57,485 nucleotides of DNA from NCBI GenBank assembly GCA_965372715.1, contig CBDVDH010000020.1, positions 1 to 57,485 on the forward strand, given 5' to 3'. The DNA is from an uncultured bacterium (GTDB lineage: Bacteria; B130-G9). The first letter of the stretch is position 1; every line of letters begins with the position of its first letter. The notes below the pieces were generated by a model. The model was not told where the DNA came from, searched no databases, and saw nothing but the letters and a program-made list of their open reading frames with translations. Below are positions 5,700 through 53,540 of this stretch, piece after piece. The position numbers and the translations under genes are program-made.

Positions 5700-6341
5700 T
5701 TACAGATCGCTTGTCGATTGGACCCGTCTGAAGGCTCGGCGTAGGTCATCAGCGAACTTCTTGAAGCCCTTGCGATCAACACGTTCAATCGCCTTGAAGT
5801 CAATCTTCTCGGCAATTGCCGTGCCGAACTCAGGCCCAGCAGCCCAGGTTGAGATGTTGGCCGCTGCAATCCGGTCCCAGAGCAGCTGTTTGTAGAAGCC
5901 CCGTTCGCATTTGTGGCGGGGCATCTCGGGAGCAGCAGCGGAGCCTACTACCTCGTTGAAGGCTCTCTGGTCGGCCAAATACCATCTCTCGATATGTGGG
6001 TCAGGGATGGCGAACACCAGCCTGTCCTGGAGGGACGTTTTCAGAGACTTCAGCGATCTGCATTCCTTGAATACTCCCTTAATCCTGTCATTGGGGCCTT
6101 TGCAGTTGCCGTCAAGCGAGATCAGCAGTATTCGGTCCCCGCCCAGCAACTCTGCCGGATTCTGTCTGGCGAATAACTCAAGCCTGGGAAGAAGCCCGCT
6201 GCCACGATCATCAGCCCTTACGTCATGGACCAAGTTGCTCGCATTGATGCCAACATCCCCAGCGATTCTCGTCACAAGGGCTGTCAGGAACTCTTTCTGA
6301 GCTCGGTCCTCAAAGAAGGATGTAATCGTCACCCTATCCAC
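5700..6341 (-). CDS. DUF4276-like (TOPRIM-like) protein, partner of the ABC-type ATPase
   Basis: GTG at 6341 overlaps the ATPase stop; FEDR first-strand acid, LDGN, IPDPHIERWYLAD motif. Confidence 0.65.
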   Translation of the reverse strand: MDRVTITSFFEDRAQKEFLTALVTRIAGDVGINASNLVHDVRADDRGSGLLPRLELFARQNPAELLGGDRILLISLDGNCKGPNDRIKGVFKECRSLKSLKTSLQDRLVFAIPDPHIERWYLADQRAFNEVVGSAAAPEMPRHKCERGFYKQLLWDRIAAANISTWAAGPEFGTAIAEKIDFKAIERVDRKGFKKFADDLRRAFRRVQSTSDL

Positions 6342-7665
6342 CGAAGTCGCCTCTTGGAATTCGGTCCTCGAGGGCCCGTTCGATCTGGTATCTACGATAC
6401 TCGTCGCCAATCGGCTTGAACGGTTCGATCGTGGTTTGTCCGTCTTCTTTGCGGCAAACGAAGAGCTGGCTGTCCTCGAACTGCTCGGCAAACAGCGGCG
6501 AGTGTGTTGTTACAATAAGCTGTTTTGAGTAGTATTTCGCGGCGTTCTTCAGGATGTCAGCAATCAGCCTGATCCTGGTGGGATGCACACCGTTTTCAGG
6601 TTCTTCAACGCAGATAACCGTGGCCGATGATTTTGGATAGAGCGCCGCGAGGAGACCCATAAGCCTAAGCGTCCCGTCCGAGATGAGACGGGAGGAATGC
6701 GAAACCCCGTTTTCAATAAGCCGCAGTCCAACCATTCCAGCCTCTTTCCGATCGATCTCAATGCTTACCTCACCGGGCATGAGCATGTTGAGCGTGAGCC
6801 TGAAGCTATCAAACGACTTGGGATTGTCCTGCTCCAAGACGTTCAGGAAGGCCGGCAACCTCTCGCCCTTACAGCCAATGCTCCTGGTGAACTCGCCGTT
6901 GGCGGGCTGCCGCATGATACCCGGATCAAGGTAGTATGATGACCATTCACTCAACTCCTTCTGATATGCTGATAGATGCGGAAAGAACGGGAGGAGAGCA
7001 GTGGATTCGCCTGGCGAGTCGGGTTCTTTTGGAAAAACCGGAATCAGACGCGGGAATATGCCTGACCAGTCGGGCTCTACTGAAAAAACGTATGCGGCGG
7101 ACTCGCCGTCTTGGCGAAGTTCGATCGCGGGTCCCTTTGGTTTTCTCCATGTACGTCGCAGAATTGGGTTCAAGCCCCTTCTCTCAGTTCCGTCACCATG
7201 GATGGGAAGTAGCTCCTCACCCTCCGCAAGCGCAACCCGCCATGTGGGGGCCAAAGCCTCGATGGACAAGGTATGCCTAAGGAACCTGTGGATGATCCGG
7301 TTGACAACCTCCTTCTTATCGGGCGAATGGCCTGGGGCCAAGATCGGGGTCTCAGATTCGAATTGGTCCAGGACGGATTGAGACAGCTGTACATCGACCT
7401 CGAACGACATCTCGAGCTTGTCTCGCTTCAGCATCTCCTCGAAGCCAACGTCTCCGTAGTAGAAACTCTCGAGCGGGAAGCCTCGATGCCCCTCAAACGC
7501 CTCGCCGAGCGTCTTGCACGTCGCCATGCGCGAGAGGATCTGGATCGCGTCCAAAAGGTTGCTCTTGCCTGAGGCGTTCGGGCCGAAGATGACCGAAACG
7601 GGCGAGAGCTTCAGGTCGAGGCTCTTGAACGATTTGTAGCCCTCGATCTTTATTCGCTTTATCAT
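6334..7665 (-). CDS. AAA_21/AAA_15-type ABC ATPase (OLD/defence-associated)
   Basis: IKRIKIEGYKSF start, GPNASGKS, ISDGTLR, ICVEEPENGVHP, TTHSP. Confidence 0.9.
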   Translation of the reverse strand: MIKRIKIEGYKSFKSLDLKLSPVSVIFGPNASGKSNLLDAIQILSRMATCKTLGEAFEGHRGFPLESFYYGDVGFEEMLKRDKLEMSFEVDVQLSQSVLDQFESETPILAPGHSPDKKEVVNRIIHRFLRHTLSIEALAPTWRVALAEGEELLPIHGDGTERRGLNPILRRTWRKPKGPAIELRQDGESAAYVFSVEPDWSGIFPRLIPVFPKEPDSPGESTALLPFFPHLSAYQKELSEWSSYYLDPGIMRQPANGEFTRSIGCKGERLPAFLNVLEQDNPKSFDSFRLTLNMLMPGEVSIEIDRKEAGMVGLRLIENGVSHSSRLISDGTLRLMGLLAALYPKSSATVICVEEPENGVHPTRIRLIADILKNAAKYYSKQLIVTTHSPLFAEQFEDSQLFVCRKEDGQTTIEPFKPIGDEYRRYQIERALEDRIPRGDFGG

Positions 7666-29748: not shown

Positions 29749-31104
29749 TCAGGGTCCCGTGAGGGGCGACCAAGTCGGGATTTCTAACGGAGTGGCGCAG
29801 CGCTTCCGGAAGATGAGGACGTTCTCCTTCTGCATGACGTTGTAGAGGCCGAAGATGATCTTGTTGACGTTGGCCGCAAGCTCGAACCCGATGTTCTTGG
29901 CACAATCGATCACAAGCGCGACGGTCCCGACCTCTTGCCCCAAGTATTTGGCGTCGCCGATGACGATTGCGGCGCATTTGCCGGGCCTGAGAACCCTGAA
30001 CATCTCGTCGAGGCAAGCCCGCATGTCCTCGTTATATAGGCCGATCCGCGCGTCGCCCTTGCCCCTGAGGCCGACGAATCGGTCCCTTATCTCCGACACA
30101 TCATGGCCGAGCTCCGTGAGCGCGTGGGCGTCGTTCTCAACGTAATCGAGCGCAATCGAATACGGCGGGGACGTTATTATGCCGTCCATAGAGCTATCGG
30201 CCAGCTCCAGCGCCCGTGCGTCTCCTTCCACGATGTTGACCTCGCCCAGCTCGAGGCGTAGGGCCTCGGTGATGGTGTGCTGATCTTCCACAGAGGCAAG
30301 CATCATATCGAGATTCTTCAAAAACGAATTAGAAAAATCTCTTCTTCGCCTAGCCTGGTCGCTGATTGCCACCAGCATAGCCATCTTGTAGAAGTTGCGC
30401 GCCGGGCCAGCCGGGAGCGAATCAATGGGTGCCCTCACCGCGTCGGCGCCCCGGTCAAATAGACTACGCTGTATCGCTTCTATGATGTCTTGGCTGACCT
30501 CTCGAATCTGCTCAATGGCCAAAACGGATTCGGTTTTGACCTTGCTCTGAAGGACGCACAGCGAAGATGTGTCCACGCCCACGCAATTGACGCCTAGAAG
30601 CTGCGCCTCGACCGCAGTAGTGCCGCTCCCCATGAACGGGTCCAGAACAGTCTCGCCCCGCTTGAGGCCGATGATGTTCAGGAGAGCACGTATCATCTGC
30701 GGATGAAACTTGCCCTTATAGGGATATATCCAGTGGGTGAGATACTGATTGACAGACCTAGTTCTGTTCTTCTTTATGATGTGGAAGTAATCTGTTTCTG
30801 AACCGTTGACGGATTTGAAATAGGCCAGCCTTCGACGCAGCAGCTGCTCGTCCCCGGCCTCGTGCAGCTTGAAATCCCGGAACCCATCGACGATCTCGAA
30901 CCGCACGCCAAAGGACAGAAGCTCAAGCCGCGCAAGCGCCAGCTCATAGATGAACTGCACATTATCGAGCAGCACCAGCCCCTCGCCGGCAGGCGCACTC
31001 TCGCCAAAGGCGGATTTGCTGGGTGAAAACGGCTCGCCAACGTGAACGCCGCCGGAGAATCCTTCACCAGATGGCGGATTGGTCCGAGCGCCTTTGAGTG
31101 TCAT
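29749..31104 (-). CDS. Site-specific DNA amino-methyltransferase (probably m4C)
   Basis: YPYKGKFHPQ, LDPFMGSGTT (motif I) followed by ITSPPY (motif IV). Confidence 0.9.
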   Translation of the reverse strand: MTLKGARTNPPSGEGFSGGVHVGEPFSPSKSAFGESAPAGEGLVLLDNVQFIYELALARLELLSFGVRFEIVDGFRDFKLHEAGDEQLLRRRLAYFKSVNGSETDYFHIIKKNRTRSVNQYLTHWIYPYKGKFHPQMIRALLNIIGLKRGETVLDPFMGSGTTAVEAQLLGVNCVGVDTSSLCVLQSKVKTESVLAIEQIREVSQDIIEAIQRSLFDRGADAVRAPIDSLPAGPARNFYKMAMLVAISDQARRRRDFSNSFLKNLDMMLASVEDQHTITEALRLELGEVNIVEGDARALELADSSMDGIITSPPYSIALDYVENDAHALTELGHDVSEIRDRFVGLRGKGDARIGLYNEDMRACLDEMFRVLRPGKCAAIVIGDAKYLGQEVGTVALVIDCAKNIGFELAANVNKIIFGLYNVMQKENVLIFRKRCATPLEIPTWSPLTGP

Positions 31105-31214
31105 TGCCTCTCCTGATAAACTGATATACTAACGGCTGTCAATCATATCCGTATCGCAACAGCTTTCAAACGTGGGACGGAATTATGCACTTAGCGCACC
31201 CATAAGATACACCG

Positions 31215-31364
31215 CTATTGCGGGGATCGCGTTACGCTTTTCGTCTGTTTCTGTTTTGGCTTGACCTTCAGAATCGCCCGCAACACTTCATCTAGATTGA
31301 GAGGATAGAGGGAGAGGGGCTTGGGGTCTTTGGCTGGCTTCTTCTCGGATCTGGTTCCCGACAT
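31215..31364 (-). CDS. Small basic hypothetical protein (49 aa), not in the ORF track
   Basis: MSGTRSEKKPAKDPKPLSLYPLNLDEVLRAILKVKPKQKQTKSVTRSPQ; starts 8 nt after the RM stop. Confidence 0.55.
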   Translation of the reverse strand: MSGTRSEKKPAKDPKPLSLYPLNLDEVLRAILKVKPKQKQTKSVTRSPQ

Positions 31365-31372
31365 TTTAGAAG

Positions 31373-34027
31373 CTATAGCAGCTCTGACACAGATTTACAG
31401 AGCGCATCCGCCTCTTCTCGCAAGCTAGTTGCCCGTTTCAATTGATCAAGCGCTTGGTCTGCTACTCGGCGCTGTTCTTTTTCATCAGGGGGCAACAGGA
31501 CCTCAATCTCTCGGATCGCGCCATAATCGAGAGCGGGCCTGGATGATCCAGTCACTGCTCGTTCAAATTGCGGTCTACATAACTTGGAGTTTAGAAAGAC
31601 GCATAGATACTCTGGAAGAACTGCATCTCCGACATCGATCCTCACGCAATGCTGGTTTATATTTGCCTCTCCGAAATCGGGCGGGACGACCGCTGCTATA
31701 CCGTACGTACCGGTAATGGTGAGCACCACATTCCCGGCTTTCAATTGCGATCTTTTTAGCCGAGTTGTATGCGTTCGCGAGTCAATGCAGGGATCTCTGT
31801 CGGAGTTCCAGACCAATGAATTGGGCTGAACATTCTGCACTCGTATAAACTTCGGGCCTTCGTCAGGGTACGCGGCACCGCGTGGAGTCTCTCCGCCGGT
31901 AAGGTCGGTTTTGTCACGAAATAAACTACGAAGTGGGACAATTCCCCATTTCCTAGATTCGGCTACTTCACGTAAACGTTGCATCGTTTTGAAGTATCGC
32001 GGATCAAACCAGTGGGCATCAAGCCGGATGGTCGGATTATCAGAAGTTACATCTGAAACGGTGAAGTCCTTAGTGCCACTTAGTTGCACAGATAATCTAC
32101 CATGCTCTTCAAAGAAGTTGAACTCGCCCAAAAGACGAGGAAGCTCATTCAAATGTGGACGTTCTTTTCCGGAATCGCTGTGCCCGACATTGTGGCAAAT
32201 CGCCATGAATATGTCTGGCTGTGGCTCAGTCAGATCGGACTTCTTGCGAAGATAAAGAACGGATGTTTTCACCGATCCCTGGGCTTTGACAAATGTATTC
32301 CTTGGAAGCGAAATAACTGCCTTAAGAATGAAGTGTTGTAGGATGTACTCTCTAAATGGTTGACGTGTAAGAGTATTCAGCACGCTCTCATCCATTACAG
32401 TAATAAGCCGGCCGCGAGAATCTAACAGGTCCCAATAACGCTCTAAGAACATCACGGAAGATCGAAGAGACGTTCTGGTTTTGCCTTTCCCATCTATTGC
32501 TAGTTTATAATCGCTAAGCACTGCGCGCTCATTCGGTTTCTTCTTTCCATACGTCATTGAAAACGGAGGGTTCGTAAGAACAGCAGACATACGCGTATGA
32601 CCTGTTACAAGGGCAGCACGGAGTTCCTCGATGTCCAGCCTGGTTTGGACCGGAAGCCCCGCCTCCACACGGAGTTGCTTATCCAGGGCGTCTGCATAAT
32701 AGATCCGGCTGCCACCATCTTTATGCAGAAGCATGTTCAATCTCGCGATCCGTGCCATCATGGGGTCTTTCCCCGCATCAATACCCCACAGTCTCTCTGT
32801 GCGTAGCTCTTTATGAAAGGCGTCCTTCTCCATTCGTGTAAGAGCACGGTTAGCTTTGATCCCTGCACTCATCTCTGCCATCGCTTCGATCAGGAAGCCA
32901 CCTGTTCCACAGCATCCATCCAATACGGTGTCCTTTTTGCGCAGGGAAAAGGTCAGTTTTGCCAACTTAACCATGAATTTCACGACAGACCGCGGAGTAA
33001 AAAACTGTCCGAGGTCCTTTCCACGCATCGTGGCGGTGAGAAAAGTTTCAAATAGCCGTCCATTCAGGTCCTCATCAACAGCATATAGATCGAAGTGTTC
33101 AAGAAATGCGACGGCCTCTTTGATTGTCGAGGGAGCTAGATTTATTCCTTCCCCCGGCTCAAAAATGCGCTTCTTCTGGCCTTTGGCAACTTGGGTCTCC
33201 AGATTCTCTGCTAATTGCGCAAACAGGATTGTGTTGATGGGATTGTCAGTGTTTTGCTCCATTTGCTCCATCCAAGCCACGGAGAATCGCACTACATCTG
33301 AGGGTATGCTCCCCGAGGCAATATCTATCTTGTGTTGCACAAGCAACTCGCGTAGACGCCTATCCTCATCAATTTTCACGAACATCAGCTTGGCGAACTC
33401 AAAGAATGCTGAAGCAGGACCGCGCTTTTCTGCCTTCCAAATGGTCCTATGGCACGCCTCGAAAATCGCTGGGAGTTCAACCGGAGAAACCGCCCTGTAT
33501 TCGAAATCGTTAATTGGTTTCTTCGCAATGGTCTTAGCCGCCAGTCTTTCGCGGCCCAAATGTTGACGCAATGCCTCAAAAGCTGGGTTTCCGTCAATAA
33601 AATCCAGGAAGGATAATTCATGAATCGGTATATCGCTATCATAATGCTTAACCATGAGACAATGGCCGTTGACCCCAACGCAGTATTGATCAGGCTTTGG
33701 TGCTAGCATATGACGCCGAATAATCGAAGCGTACAACTGGGCATCATCAACGCCATCCTCTACAGATTCATTCGGATGCTTTGCATCAATGACGAGTACA
33801 GGCTTGTCTTTGTCGCGGGTGAGATAGGCAAGATAGTCTGGGACATAGGATTTCCGTCTCTTCCCTTTGCCTATAACCGTCTTCTTGATGGTTGCTTTCG
33901 TCTGCACGTAGTCAGAGCCATATCCCAAATCGGATAGAAGATGCACCACAAGGAACTGCTCGACATCGCTTTCGTTCTGCAGCGAAGATAGGGCACAATA
34001 CTTGTTATGCATTCGGCTGTCTATCAT
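31373..34027 (-). CDS. Fused restriction-modification protein (type IIG-like: nuclease + N6-MTase + TRD)
   Basis: PDY...VIDAK nuclease motif, GQFFTPR, DGCCGTGGF, TNPPF, C-terminal HsdS-like TRD. Confidence 0.9.
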   Translation of the reverse strand: MIDSRMHNKYCALSSLQNESDVEQFLVVHLLSDLGYGSDYVQTKATIKKTVIGKGKRRKSYVPDYLAYLTRDKDKPVLVIDAKHPNESVEDGVDDAQLYASIIRRHMLAPKPDQYCVGVNGHCLMVKHYDSDIPIHELSFLDFIDGNPAFEALRQHLGRERLAAKTIAKKPINDFEYRAVSPVELPAIFEACHRTIWKAEKRGPASAFFEFAKLMFVKIDEDRRLRELLVQHKIDIASGSIPSDVVRFSVAWMEQMEQNTDNPINTILFAQLAENLETQVAKGQKKRIFEPGEGINLAPSTIKEAVAFLEHFDLYAVDEDLNGRLFETFLTATMRGKDLGQFFTPRSVVKFMVKLAKLTFSLRKKDTVLDGCCGTGGFLIEAMAEMSAGIKANRALTRMEKDAFHKELRTERLWGIDAGKDPMMARIARLNMLLHKDGGSRIYYADALDKQLRVEAGLPVQTRLDIEELRAALVTGHTRMSAVLTNPPFSMTYGKKKPNERAVLSDYKLAIDGKGKTRTSLRSSVMFLERYWDLLDSRGRLITVMDESVLNTLTRQPFREYILQHFILKAVISLPRNTFVKAQGSVKTSVLYLRKKSDLTEPQPDIFMAICHNVGHSDSGKERPHLNELPRLLGEFNFFEEHGRLSVQLSGTKDFTVSDVTSDNPTIRLDAHWFDPRYFKTMQRLREVAESRKWGIVPLRSLFRDKTDLTGGETPRGAAYPDEGPKFIRVQNVQPNSLVWNSDRDPCIDSRTHTTRLKRSQLKAGNVVLTITGTYGIAAVVPPDFGEANINQHCVRIDVGDAVLPEYLCVFLNSKLCRPQFERAVTGSSRPALDYGAIREIEVLLPPDEKEQRRVADQALDQLKRATSLREEADALCKSVSELL

Positions 34028-46033: not shown

Positions 46034-46179
46034 AGTTGCCAGTTGCCAGTTGGCGGTTCGCAGTCAGCGACGGAGTTTTGTGTAGGGGCGTGGTCTCAGA
46101 CCCGTTCCGGAAAGACAAACGGGTGCGGCAAGCAGCACCCCTACAAGGTCGCGGGCGGGTCAGAGACCGCGCCACTACA
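46034..46179. repeat. Heptamer tandem (AGTTGCC/AGTTGGC) plus GTAG-type REP cluster
   Basis: Five degenerate heptamers, then TGTAGGGGCG...CCCCTACA...CCACTACA. Confidence 0.75.
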
Positions 46180-47252: not shown

Positions 47253-48269
47253 TCATAGCACCAGTGTCCTTCTCTTGAAGCTCCCGTAGAGCTTGCCAAG
47301 CGTCAGCGCCGAGAACGCTACCGTGTCAAAGATCGGCAGCAGGGCCTCGAACTTCGGCCTCCGCACGATGGGAGCAACGAGGCTTTTCAAAATGCTCTCG
47401 ACGAGGAACACGTGCTCCTTCCAATCGAACCTGAACCTGCTCCCGAAAAGACGATGATGTCTTGCGAAGAGCGAGGCGCGGCCGAAGCCGTATTCGAACG
47501 ATTGCGAATAAAGCCCGAGCAGGTTCGACCTGTGCTGGTGGACGACGACCGCGTCGGGACAATACGTGAGCCTCAAACCCGCCTGTTGAGCACGCCAACA
47601 AAGGTCTGCGTCGCCCGCTATCCTAAAGAAAGTGTCGAATACGCCAATCCTATCGAATACCTCACGCCTCACGAGGCAATTGGCGGTAACGAAGAACGGC
47701 AGCGAAAACTCCCCGCCCTCCACCATCTTTTCCTGGTCCAGAATCCTACGATAATCTATGTAACGCTCGACAAGATTCGACGCCGGATACGCCTCAACCT
47801 TCCCACCCACGATGGCTGCGCCATCCGTTGGCAGTTGGCAGTTGGCAGTTGGCAGCGGAACGTTCGCCGAACGGCGAATTGGCGGCTTGTCCGCAATAGC
47901 TTGTGGCGACGGCGGATTGAGGGTTGATGAATCAGGGATGTTCAGGGAATCGACGAGGCGCAAGAGCCAGCGTGGTTTCGGTATGCAATCGGCGTCGGTG
48001 AATGCGATGAGGTCGTGCTCGGCCAACTCAATGCCCGTATTTCGGGCCTGATACGCGCCCTGCTTTGGCTCAAAGACGACGTCTATGCTATCGAATTGTT
48101 GAAGGATGTCGGACGTGTTGTCGGTCGAGTTGTTGTCAACGACGATGATCTGGACGAGGCGCTTTGGATAATCGAGAGCGAGCAGAGCGTGGACGCACTC
48201 CGCTATCGTCCCCTCACCGTTATAGACGGGCACGATAATCGATACGGGCGGCAGGTTCTTCTTCGGCAT
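47253..48269 (-). CDS. Glycosyltransferase family 2 with repeat-derived internal insertion
   Basis: VSIIVPVYN, VDNNSTD, ARN, FTDADC, GDAD. Confidence 0.92.
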   Translation of the reverse strand: MPKKNLPPVSIIVPVYNGEGTIAECVHALLALDYPKRLVQIIVVDNNSTDNTSDILQQFDSIDVVFEPKQGAYQARNTGIELAEHDLIAFTDADCIPKPRWLLRLVDSLNIPDSSTLNPPSPQAIADKPPIRRSANVPLPTANCQLPTDGAAIVGGKVEAYPASNLVERYIDYRRILDQEKMVEGGEFSLPFFVTANCLVRREVFDRIGVFDTFFRIAGDADLCWRAQQAGLRLTYCPDAVVVHQHRSNLLGLYSQSFEYGFGRASLFARHHRLFGSRFRFDWKEHVFLVESILKSLVAPIVRRPKFEALLPIFDTVAFSALTLGKLYGSFKRRTLVL

Positions 48270-48309
48270 CAAATGCACTTCACCACAGAGACACAGAGAC
48301 ACAGAGAGG

Positions 48310-48702
48310 TCAAAGGACTAATCTCCTTATCCCGTCCTTTAGGACAGCAGTGTTGAAGTTGATCAAAAGACCTGTTTTCAGACCGGTTAGTCTCAGATAT
48401 GTCAGTAGCTGCGCCTCGTGAATCGACAACAGCTTCTCCACAGTCTTCAGTTCAAGGATAAGCCTGTTCTCTACGATTACATCGACCCTATAGCCGACGT
48501 CAAGCTTCACACCCTTATAGACTACAGGCAGCGCTACCTGCCGTTGAACACTAAGGCCGGCCTGCTTGAGCTCCCAGCAGATGCATTCTTCGTAGGCAGA
48601 TTCCAGGAGTCCGGGACCGAGATGTCGATGCACTTCAATCGCCAGCCCGATAACCTTCCCAGTCAATGGGTCCCTCTGTGTCTCTGTGTCTCTGTGGTTC
48701 AC
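48310..48702 (-). CDS. GxxExxY protein (PD-(D/E)XK nuclease superfamily)
   Basis: EVHRHLGPGLLESAYE, YRVDVIVE, LELK, AQLLTYL, GLLINF. Confidence 0.97.
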   Translation of the reverse strand: MNHRDTETQRDPLTGKVIGLAIEVHRHLGPGLLESAYEECICWELKQAGLSVQRQVALPVVYKGVKLDVGYRVDVIVENRLILELKTVEKLLSIHEAQLLTYLRLTGLKTGLLINFNTAVLKDGIRRLVL

Positions 48703-48891
48703 GTTTTCACCTCACAGCACTTCTTTACCACAGAGACACAGAGAAAAAGCTTGTGCCAAATGGTGCGCTTCCTCTCCGCAGCCGTTTCTTCTGGATTGCC
48801 CGCATCCTCCCGCCTTAGTGCCCTCTGTGTCTCTGCGTCTCTGTGGTTCACACCCTCACCTCATAAGTCTTCCCACCACAGAGACACAGAG

Positions 48892-49329
48892 TTACGCAGG
48901 GGAATAATCATCAAGGAAATTCTTAATCGGATCGATGCCCAGCTCCTCGAATCTGGAAAGGACGAATCGTTCCGCCTGTTCCGCCAATTCGACTGCCCCT
49001 AGCGCTTCACCCAGAGGCGGGAAATAGAAATCATCGACATACCTCACTTCCACCGCGTATGGCGTGAGAATCTCCACTCCCTGAAGCTGGGAAAATGCCG
49101 GGTCGGTCCGCTCGCAGAGTTCCACGATCTCGGCCAAGTTATGGGTTCTTGGGACAGTGATCTCGTGCCAATGCAGCCACGCCTTGAGCATCTTCTCCGC
49201 GGCCTGCTGGCAATGAAAGCAAACCACATCCGTCGCTGGGCTGGCGGTCTGCATCAAATCCTGCGCGGACCTGAGGTCATTTCGGGCCTTGAAGACCAGC
49301 CGTTGGATGTGCTCAAGCTTTTCGATCAT
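48892..49329 (-). CDS. HEPN domain protein
   Basis: VCFHCQQAAEKMLKA, PRTHNL, YAVEVRY. Confidence 0.92.
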   Translation of the reverse strand: MIEKLEHIQRLVFKARNDLRSAQDLMQTASPATDVVCFHCQQAAEKMLKAWLHWHEITVPRTHNLAEIVELCERTDPAFSQLQGVEILTPYAVEVRYVDDFYFPPLGEALGAVELAEQAERFVLSRFEELGIDPIKNFLDDYSPA

Positions 49330-49687
49330 AAAGCGTCACGCCCTCTCGCAAGACGGTCTGTACAAAAGAAAACGGAAGGTTCGCGTATTCATCCGCCTCC
49401 TCTTGCGTCCGAACGATAATGTCCACGGATAGCAAATAATTCCGAAGTAACCGATACATGGGGACGCTCCGCTTCGGTCTGGGCAGGTCAGTTGGCATGA
49501 TGACCAGGAAGTCTATGTCAGAATGCTCTGTCGCCTCTCCCCGTGCGTAACTTCCAAACAAGATGATCTTGTCAGGATTGAAAGCTCTGGATAGCTTGCT
49601 GGCCATCTCCAGGATGACTCCGAACTCCACCTTCTCCGGCTTACAGGTCCGAAGTTCTTCCAGCGTCATTTGGTCCAGCGTCTTCAC
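49313..49687 (-). CDS. Minimal nucleotidyltransferase (MNT)
   Basis: IILFGSYARGEATEHSDIDFLVI; overlaps the HEPN start. Confidence 0.93.
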   Translation of the reverse strand: MKTLDQMTLEELRTCKPEKVEFGVILEMASKLSRAFNPDKIILFGSYARGEATEHSDIDFLVIMPTDLPRPKRSVPMYRLLRNYLLSVDIIVRTQEEADEYANLPFSFVQTVLREGVTLYDRKA

Positions 49688-49891
49688 ATCCTCACCTCAT
49701 AGTCTCTTCCACCACAGAGACACAGAGACACAGAGAAAAAGTACAAGTGGCGAGTATCAAGTTTTTTGACCATGACCTGTTTCTTCCGGATTGCCCGCAT
49801 CCTCCGACCTCAGTGTTCTCTGTGTCTCTGTGGTGAATCATCACTAATCCACACGCTCAGTCAAGCGTTTCGTCGTGGCAAGAACAAGCTC

Positions 49892-53217: not shown

Positions 53218-53231
53218 CTGGAGAAAGTGGG

Positions 53232-53540
53232 AACCACGAATGAACACGAAGCGGAGAGCCTCCGCCCCCGGAGCTGTCCTGGCCGGCGGATGCGCCAGTC
53301 AGCTCGCACGTGCCGAGCTCGCGTCCAACCAGTGATACAAACCTGAATAGGCGCGAATGAGGGCGAACGAGGTCGCCGCCTTCGTGCTCCTTAGTGTCCT
53401 TCGTGGACCCGGGTTCTATTAGATGTTTCATCCACCAAGACCACGAAGCCGCACGAAGATTCAGCTGATCTCTCCTTAATTCGTGTTAATTCGTGTTAAT
53501 TCGTGGTTTCCTCTCCTCTTCCTGGTGGCCTTCGTGGCTC
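53232..53540. repeat. Cluster of CACGAA-core short-period repeat arms in both orientations
   Basis: AACCACGAATGAACACGAA; TTCGTGCTCCTTAGTGTCCTTCGTGG; CCACCAAGACCACGAAGCCGCACGAAG; (TTAATTCGTG)x3+GTT. Confidence 0.75.

Follow-up and report, generated by a model that had tools for sequence, protein, structure and literature searches.

GxxExxY nuclease genes held between inverted repeat arms look like an undescribed self-contained genetic element of prokaryotic operons

The locus described here raises the question of why a gene encoding a small protein of the GxxExxY family should be enclosed between perfect inverted repeats (hereafter, arms), in an array with similar units containing no gene, and whether the gene and the arms belong together. 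This locus is carried by a 57,485-nucleotide stretch of DNA from an uncultured bacterium (contig CBDVDH010000020.1, assembly GCA_965372715.1), which is called the window below. A previous sequence-only reading of the window had interpreted it as a candidate integrase-free cassette system in which the protein may recognize or cut the arms. PF13366/TIGR04256 is a very large family mentioned in few papers. In a table of the 2012 survey on PD-(D/E)XK proteins, the function of PF13366 is given as "Unknown" and multiple transfers are listed, and in a reverse transcriptase classification paper, the name GxxExxY occurs as an incidental annotation.

In the window, the GxxExxY unit occupies positions 48282..48702 on the minus strand. 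Its open reading frame (ORF; 48702-48310) is bracketed, as the sequence-only reading had stated, by a perfect 25-nt inverted pair (48282-48306 / 48674-48698), the 5' arm being located at 48698-48674 and the 3' arm at 48306-48282. Residues 2-10 of the protein (NHRDTETQR) are translated from the 5' arm, and the stop codon (48312-48310) lies three nt from the 3' arm, so that the coordinates also bear out the claim that one arm encodes the N-terminus while the other closely follows the stop. The arms consist of 2-3 copies of the 8-nt unit CACAGAGA (Tandem Repeats Finder). When up to two mismatches were allowed, the arm 16-mer CCACAGAGACACAGAG gave 11 matches in the 57-kb window, all of which fall within 48283-49833, as compared with a mean of 0.05 (maximum 1) in 100 shuffled sequences; the repeats are therefore not due to chance.

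The same architecture was found throughout the family. A profile-guided scan with one genome per species yielded 80 loci (L001-L080) from 15 named phyla, a Methanothrix locus among them. Arms were defined generically as at least two tandem C[AG]C[AG][AG]AG units 1-3 nt apart, a pattern which occurs 224 times in 578,547 nt and three times after shuffling. Both canonical arms (forward at the start codon or shortly ahead of it, reverse shortly past the stop codon) are present at 50 of the 80 loci and in none of the 396 shifted control windows taken from the same loci, which upholds the earlier idea that the gene and its arms form a coherent unit. Among the remaining loci, 15 have one arm, two show the reversed arrangement, and in four, arms are confined to the non-canonical side. 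The picture obtained with the regular expression was reproduced in an independent ungapped search for complementarity between the flanks, with shuffle controls. Each arm is composed of 2-4 tandem 7-mers of the form C[AG]C[AG][AG]AG, with 1-3 nt between them and (T)TCACC...GGTGA(A) as caps. The whole ORF is enclosed, the 5' arm being found at its start codon or immediately ahead of it and the 3' arm 0-30 nt past its stop codon. The arm unit varies by lineage (CACAGAG, CACGGAG, CACGAAG, CACAAAG, CGCAAAG, or CGCAGAG) and the arms are complementary within each locus; more than one arm type occurs in L003, L039, and the window. The arm-encoded peptide NHR[DG]TE forms the N-terminus of 52 of the 120 best protein matches, which belong to many phyla (70-100% identity), and in Bacteroides finegoldii (RefSeq record) a unit of this architecture separates radA from a flavoprotein gene, with the 5' arm outside the annotated coding sequence.

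Adjacent forward and reverse arms fall into two classes. In 49 pairs, the arms are 367-536 nt apart (gene units), and in 27 pairs the distance is 23-161 nt (empty units), so that the gene-less units noticed in the sequence-only reading do have counterparts in the same loci. The gene-less arm pairs of 60-160 nt adjoin gene units and also occur elsewhere: in the DNA covered, consisting of the 4-kb flanks and the window, all 27 short doublets come from the flanks, and in the window a second cluster is 4.7 kb away. The GxxExxY gene is found inside 60 of the 73 adjacent arm pairs that are spaced by 162-1500 nt and hold an ORF of at least 60 codons. Repeated units were also observed at individual loci. 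The Planctomycetaceae locus L059 (2950-5389) has tandem arrays of near-identical empty units with a period of about 225 bp (a 138-nt unit plus an 87-nt spacer) on both sides of GxxExxY, that of Propionicimonas (L079, 225-1654) has eight arms in a single orientation that flank the gene on both sides at spacings of about 120-145 nt and thus form a direct-repeat array rather than inverted pairs, and L026 (3988-5067) carries two near-identical GxxExxY units in tandem with a 654-bp period, each in arms of the CACGAAG type.

The other members of the array in the window are all located on the minus strand, between the divergent gene hflK and a glycosyltransferase operon with which the array is co-oriented. 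Read 5' to 3' on this strand, empty unit 2 (49710..49835) comes first. Its arms (5' arm 49835-49817, 3' arm 49735-49711) pair over 19 nt at 100%, and its interior of about 80 nt contains no conserved ORF, the 50-aa ORF of its own having no family match. It is followed by a spacer (49685..49710) reading TGAGGTGA-GGAT-GTG, in which the GTG is the start codon of an MNT-type nucleotidyltransferase gene resembling an antitoxin (49313..49687; PF01909, E=5.4e-13). This ORF overlaps at 49313-49329 with its toxin-like partner, a HEPN-domain gene (48892..49329; PF05168, E=2.8e-19), the stop codon of which (48894-48892) is directly abutted by a solo 3' arm (48875..48891). A second spacer (48848..48874; TGAGGTGA-GGGT-GTG), which together with the preceding arm makes up a 45-nt direct repeat of 49683-49727 (84% identity), leads to empty unit 1 (48727..48847; arms 48847-48823 and 48749-48727), which has a 27-nt core in common with empty unit 2. 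The third spacer (48699..48726; TGAGGTGA-AAAC-GTG) provides the GTG start codon of GxxExxY (48702-48700), and the ATG of a GT2 glycosyltransferase gene (48270-48268) lies 11 nt (48281-48271) past the 3' arm of the GxxExxY unit. The two empty units carry the same arms as the gene unit and share a 52-nt stretch with 88% identity, the starts being 995 nt apart. The frame in which the shared core is read differs between the short ORFs of the two empty units, and neither ORF has a family match in the profile and Pfam searches; the core is therefore not protein-coding. The empty units with their common segment, the arm abutting the HEPN stop, and the spacer present at three junctions had all been noticed in the sequence-only reading and are as it described them. 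The TGAGGTGA-N4-GTG spacer occurs in both of the loci compared for it, i.e., in the window and in its relative L001. The second arm cluster (53226..53514; arms at 53226-53250, 53380-53407, 53431-53458, and 53480-53514) lies between a B12/radical-SAM gene and argS. It consists of CACGAA[TG] units, which differ from the main arms, and has no GxxExxY gene beside it.

Comparisons between relatives gave information about the dynamics of these units. L001 is a syntenic locus with about 94% identity in the flanking genes and the order hflK, one empty unit, spacer, GxxExxY in arms, and GT2. It lacks 995 bp of the window, corresponding to the MNT-HEPN pair and one empty unit, and 995 nt is the exact start-to-start distance between the two empty units of the window. 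Since this indel amounts to one repeat period and both of its ends lie in repeated sequence, an insertion at a GTGAA junction and a deletion by unequal recombination cannot be told apart. The comparison of close relatives suggested in the sequence-only reading thus yielded a difference of exactly one module, but one which unequal recombination explains equally well. The empty unit of L001 is at best a candidate for a clean chimera of empty units 2 and 1, which would have established a deletion by recombination: the left part is identical to empty unit 2 (46/46), but the right interior has diverged from both (21/28 and 14/17). The second arm cluster (53226-53514) is present in L001 as well, with indels of about 30 and 107 nt. 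In the trp operon, the trpE|trpG junction is empty in L021 and filled in L003, L005, L008, L023, and L039, while trpD|trpC is occupied by a gene unit in L021 and by an empty unit in both L003 and L039 but is vacant in L023, and in L039 an empty unit with arms of a different type is present at trpG|trpD. Junction occupancy therefore differs between genera. As judged from these sequences, the units appear to be long resident, with mostly vertical descent and occasional change, rather than hopping frequently.

Besides GxxExxY, the only passengers found repeatedly are toxin-antitoxin (TA) pairs. In the window, the MNT gene is a PADLOC candidate (PDC-S09) and matches the MntA profile NF047752 at E=3.5e-9 with 36.5 bits, which is below the curated cut-off of 60. 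In L045 (1845-3027), a DUF433/DUF5615 (PIN-like) pair is enclosed by one forward and one reverse arm and immediately precedes a GxxExxY gene without a 3' arm of its own, and CCACTGGCAGGTATCTCCCT is repeated near both inner ends. In L053, a DUF2283-containing pair occurs between arm clusters. The other intervals devoid of GxxExxY mostly consist of host genes between two elements or of array spacers. The cargo capture proposed earlier is supported insofar as a TA pair inside or beside the arms recurs, but with 60 of the 73 ORF-holding pairs occupied by GxxExxY, other cargo is rare.

The GxxExxY protein of the window was identified by TIGR04256 (E=1.3e-45, 154.5 bits, cut-off 35) and by PF13366 (PDDEXK_3; E=1.6e-43, 148.2 bits, cut-off 22), which is its sole Pfam match. 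The G-x-x-E-x-x-Y motif and the D...E-x-K catalytic set are both present, and residues G31, E34, Y37, D74, E84, and K86 are invariant in the 38 homologues aligned. In the confident AlphaFold2 model (pLDDT 90.8, pTM 0.83), residues 1-9 are disordered and are followed by helices 12-28 and 34-47, five strands within 52-86, helix 93-106, strand 110-115, helix 121-124, and strand 125-129; the protein appears to model as an intact PD-(D/E)XK nuclease core. The top-ranked Foldseek matches in the PDB are PD-(D/E)XK enzymes, although none of them reaches E<=0.001 and the TM scores do not exceed 0.51. The compact ones are the archaeal Hjc Holliday-junction resolvases 2wiw, 2wj0, and 1gef (TM 0.43-0.49; 2wiw, TM 0.46-0.49, rmsd 4.2 over 103 columns), and further matches include lambda exonuclease and Cas4 and, weakly, tRNA-splicing endonucleases (probability 0.15-0.33). 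A sequence search of the PDB with the family profile detected no relative, the single match (L9, E=0.29) being noise. The profile matched 32,230 of 1.84 billion cluster representatives (50% identity clusters) at E<=0.001, of which 14,110 reach E<=1e-10. Among the best profile matches are two-domain GxxExxY-GxxExxY fusions (P0121-P0128, 268-295 aa), in which the second domain has kept the GPGLL motif and lost the D...ExK residues. The fact that ExK has been lost from the second domain suggests that these fusions are pseudo-dimers and that the working unit may be dimeric. Neither the GxxExxY nor the HEPN protein gave a match in PADLOC or PHROGs; GxxExxY is therefore not catalogued there as a defence or phage family.

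The units reside in operons. The Pfam scan of the flanks covered 130 of 264 candidate ORFs, in loci L001-L038, and among the neighbours it validated, 27 of the 31 located upstream and 26 of the 28 located downstream are on the strand of the unit. The junctions occupied include trpE|trpG, trpD|trpC, carA|carB, leuC|leuD, hsdS|hsdR, nadA|nadB, moxR|DUF58, and kinase|regulator, as well as SpoU|MgsA, which is occupied three times, and the neighbouring pairs are mostly functionally linked. In six trp-operon loci from betaproteobacteria, the stop codon of the upstream gene overlaps the GxxExxY start codon or precedes it by at most 5 nt, and in the four of these loci in which it is readable, the downstream start codon lies 8-15 nt past the GGTGA end of the 3' arm. 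This tight spacing fits a promoterless insert with coupled translation, the Shine-Dalgarno-like end of which would serve the next gene. To judge by the N-terminal sequences only, the units in L040 and L043 appear to be flanked on either side by a large gene for a membrane protein similar to an NADH dehydrogenase subunit, and this placement may account for the old annotation of GxxExxY genes as "NADH:ubiquinone oxidoreductase subunit".

In 16 pairs of loci, each from within one protein clade, the four-fold degenerate sites are saturated (193 of 665 identical, 0.29), whereas identity amounts to 0.91 in the 5' arm (273/299) and to 0.88 in the non-coding 3' arm (323/368). The arm blocks were located via the motif itself, and the motif definition alone gives an identity of about 0.68, which is also the between-clade figure for the 3' arm, so that the evidence for selection lies in the excess of within-clade identity over this floor and in the very presence of the motif. 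The arms are under selection as nucleic acid, and this signal is not specific to RNA. The nine N-terminal residues encoded by the arm are disordered in the model and, in several loci (L015, L031, and L075), a stop codon separates the arm from the ORF, which indicates that the encoded peptide is not what matters.

The possibility that the arms act in the form of RNA, as a transcript stem of 20-30 bp that loops the insert out while the nuclease has an unrelated role or one on RNA, has to be considered here, and we rate it as a serious rival, if a rather improbable one. Such a stem could mask the GxxExxY start, bring the upstream stop codon near the downstream start codon, or form an RNase III or exonuclease-blocking site; REP (repetitive extragenic palindrome), ERIC, and Correia hairpins and rRNA intervening sequences work as RNA elements of this kind. 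The units are indeed co-oriented and co-transcribed with operons, and in the minimum free energy fold of the window unit (-181.2 kcal/mol, z -4.8), the arms pair as a 27-bp stem. In many loci, the start codon is 3-6 nt from the base of the stem, the outer ends UCACC/GGUGA resemble the anti-Shine-Dalgarno/Shine-Dalgarno pair known from the 3' end of 16S rRNA, and tRNA-splicing endonucleases figure among the weak fold matches. Selection for pairing in the mRNA should favour G-U pairs, however, and this is not what the mismatches between arms show: on the sense strand, G-T/T-G and A-C/C-A mismatches number 37 and 40 in the gene units (1406 paired columns) and 22 and 37 in the empty units (787 paired columns), so that no selection of this kind is supported. 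In addition, the arms form perfect duplexes lacking the bulges required by splicing endonucleases, DNA enzymes provide the best of the compact fold matches, and at the gathering score Rfam detected one tRNA in the whole window and no family matching the arms.

Two other explanations deny any specific link between the nuclease and the arms or make the arms recombination sites. The arms might be generic REP-like host repeats that accumulate in intergenic gaps, and GxxExxY an independent small gene that tends to land in these same permissive places. Arm clusters without a local GxxExxY gene (window 53226-53514 and the empty units at other trp junctions) and the coexistence of several arm types in L003, L039, and the window speak for it, but the geometry is too regular (50/80 loci as against 0/396 controls), 52 of 120 homologues carry the arm peptide as part of the protein, and the same motif family accompanies the gene across 15 phyla and into an archaeon; we therefore regard this explanation as very improbable. 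Slightly less credence still can be given to the integron-like logic of the sequence-only reading, according to which promoterless cassettes ending in arms, each followed by a Shine-Dalgarno sequence and a start codon, are captured and shuffled at a GTGAA|CCAC junction. The array is co-oriented and shows the spacer three times, the module missing in L001 starts just after one GTGAA and ends at another, TA pairs occur within or beside arms in the window and L045, and multi-unit arrays exist in L026, L056, L059, and L079. Yet no tyrosine recombinase or other recombinase family, and more generally no integrase or transposase family, was detected among the window ORFs scanned with Pfam (40 ORFs at E<=1e-8 and eight in the region at E<=0.01, several large ORFs having no match at all), in agreement with the absence of such genes claimed earlier. 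The diversity of the cargo is very low, most units are single inserts in housekeeping operons rather than arrays, the 995-bp indel is accounted for equally well by unequal recombination, and the arrays in L059 and L010 are tandem duplications of near-identical units.

The comparison with integrons leads to the same conclusion. Integron cassettes are promoterless co-oriented ORFs, each followed by an imperfect-palindrome site, which sometimes form arrays and include TA cassettes. The GxxExxY array likewise has co-oriented ORFs followed by arms and a TA pair among its cargo, but there is no IntI among the window ORFs scanned and no attI/Pc, the cargo is nearly always the same gene, and the unit ends ((T)TCACC / TGAACC ... 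GGTGAA / GGTTCA) are, by eye, unlike the attC cores (RYYYAAC / GTTRRRY). Because of the recombinase, the type of site, and the diversity of the cargo, the analogy fails, and the integron-like part of the sequence-only reading is not supported.

Other known systems resemble the GxxExxY units in some respects. Miniature inverted-repeat transposable elements (MITEs) and intergenic palindromes such as Correia/NEMIS, ERIC, RUP, and RPE are about 100-150 bp long, with terminal inverted repeats, and lie in transcribed intergenic DNA; several of the bacterial ones are not known to have a transposase. GxxExxY units have terminal inverted repeats like those of DNA transposons and MITEs. Unlike MITEs, they exist in a protein-coding full-length version, and near the gene no other form is as common; target-site duplications were not found, and their arms are internally tandem-repeated and conserved across phyla. 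Free-standing homing endonuclease genes lie between conserved genes ("intronless homing" in T-even phages), and GxxExxY is also a small nuclease gene between conserved co-directional genes at junctions whose occupancy varies between relatives, but homing genes are not known to have inverted arms or gene-less derivatives. With Hjc, its best compact structural match, GxxExxY shares the E...D...ExK catalytic set, without any structural match at E<=0.001 or any PDB sequence relative. The passenger pair in the window resembles HEPN-MNT type VII TA systems in that an NTP_transf_2 gene overlaps the downstream HEPN gene, and differs from them in that the MNT protein is below the MntA cut-off (36.5 versus 60 bits) and the pair is embedded in an arm array. 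Unlike the ORFs of rRNA intervening sequences, the GxxExxY gene of the window is not inside a 23S rRNA gene, the one Rfam match there being a tRNA.

The closest analogy is the REPIN-RAYT system. The enzyme gene is reported to be "typically flanked by multiple REPINs," which are inverted REP doublets (PMC3337134), the system to undergo long-term, mostly vertical inheritance with lineage-specific repeats (PMC3337134; PMC3116915; 10.1101/2021.07.10.451892; 10.1101/2022.05.22.493013), and the RAYTs to be typically single-copy (10.1101/119735). The GxxExxY units similarly have a gene between its own cognate inverted repeats (50/80 loci versus 0/396 controls), short gene-less doublets able to form hairpins in intergenic DNA, and what appears to be a long-term, mostly vertical inheritance with lineage-specific repeat types. 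In contrast, GxxExxY is a predicted PD-(D/E)XK nuclease of about 120 aa and RAYT a HUH/Y1 (IS200-like) transposase, the arms are tandem 7-mer arrays instead of REP palindromes, and the GxxExxY gene fills the loop of a single inverted pair, in units lying in operons in the sense orientation. Because the enzyme is of the PD-(D/E)XK and not of the HUH/Y1 type, the GxxExxY units are outside the REPIN-RAYT family.

Our preferred reading, which is quite possible but which we put forward tentatively, takes the GxxExxY gene together with its pair of arms as a single compact, self-contained element some 420-450 bp long, similar in its way of life to the REPIN/RAYT system and equipped with a minimal PD-(D/E)XK nuclease where that system has a tyrosine transposase. 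The unit would have no promoter of its own and would be translated by coupling from the mRNA of the host operon, while its 3' arm would hand the downstream gene a Shine-Dalgarno-like GGTGA, so that the operon would hardly suffer from the insertion. Probably acting as a dimer, the nuclease would recognize its own arms as a sequence or as a hairpin or cruciform and would nick or cut there, after which host repair, replication, or recombination would copy or excise the gene units and, in trans, the empty units. The array in the window (empty unit, MNT-HEPN, arm, empty unit, GxxExxY) may have grown or shrunk by recombination between repeats, with the TA pair as a passenger; movement would be rare and the elements mostly inherited vertically. 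The action of the nuclease on the arms and the mobility of the units are what we infer.

Several observations weigh against this reading. No arms were detected with the regular expression at 9 of the 80 loci, the structural matches of the protein are weak, and a PD-(D/E)XK nuclease alone is unable to rejoin DNA. The equal numbers of G-T and A-C mismatches argue against RNA pairing but do not prove any action at the DNA level. No consistent direct repeat suggestive of a target-site duplication was seen by eye outside 79 arm pairs, no movement event was observed in the comparisons, and the family is present in 8 of 72,556 plasmid records, all of them non-mobilizable, and in none of 50,697 phage records. 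The insertion site is often common to relatives. On the protein tree, which is based on a 116-residue core and is poorly resolved (4 of 78 inner branches starred), the host phylum shows 27 changes (shuffle mean 48.9, minimum 42) and the arm type 21 (shuffle mean 30.9, minimum 26), which means that the tree tracks the phylum at least as well as the arm type. The covariation of the arms with protein phylogeny proposed as a check was thus found insofar as arm types do cluster on the tree, but it is inseparable from common descent and shared insertion sites and was rejected as a proof of co-adaptation. The idea that empty units are internal-deletion derivatives of the gene was likewise abandoned, no similarity having been detected between them beyond the arms.

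The broadest version of this proposal would make the GxxExxY units a new class of prokaryotic selfish element that is found in no fewer than 15 phyla, with a methanogen among the carriers, comprises at least 14,000 protein clusters, and would propagate without a transposase or integrase. A minimal Hjc-like PD-(D/E)XK dimer would cut the hairpin or cruciform of its own tandem-heptamer arms, host repair would complete the process, empty units would be mobilized in trans, TA genes would occasionally be trapped, and the element would survive in essential operons thanks to borrowed translation and the ribosome-binding site it passes on. In this full form, we consider the proposal unlikely.

The surroundings of the array are ordinary chromosome, with tsaE, hslVU-like genes, lgt, hflK/C, and argS. 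The GT2 glycosyltransferase ORF contains a perfect tandem repeat of 7 nt (GTTGGCA x4.1, 47827-47855), the translation of which is a repeated ANCQLPT-like insert separating one half of the GT2 domain from the other, and a related heptamer (AGTTGCC x2.7) is present at 46034-46052. The same GT2 gene contains a masked run of N in L001, where this repeat is therefore not comparable. Two large ORFs with DNA methyltransferase domains (N6_N4_Mtase/UPF0020 and N6_Mtase) were identified at 29749-34027 and an AAA_21/AbiEii-like ATPase at 6334-7665; these are possibly restriction or defence genes unrelated to the arm elements.

In the full-text literature searched, no description of the GxxExxY arms and no occurrence of six arm sequences were found; as database family descriptions and preprint supplements were outside the search, an earlier description is possible. 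The package formed by the gene and its arms looks like an undescribed self-contained genetic element, and there is a fair chance that its mechanism is categorically new. The GxxExxY family thereby gains a concrete hypothesis, namely that the arms are the cognate site of the nuclease, and the arms explain the odd repeat-encoded N-termini found in annotations. The units would be a second, mechanistically different case of the lifestyle in which a gene is associated with its own intergenic repeats, so far known from REPIN-RAYT. If the nuclease mobilizes hairpin-bounded DNA, the mechanism would be a new one akin to transposition, and the family would be a source of compact nucleases with sequence or structure specificity. 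If the arms act as RNA, the units would constitute a widespread, unnoticed way of putting a gene into an operon without breaking that operon.

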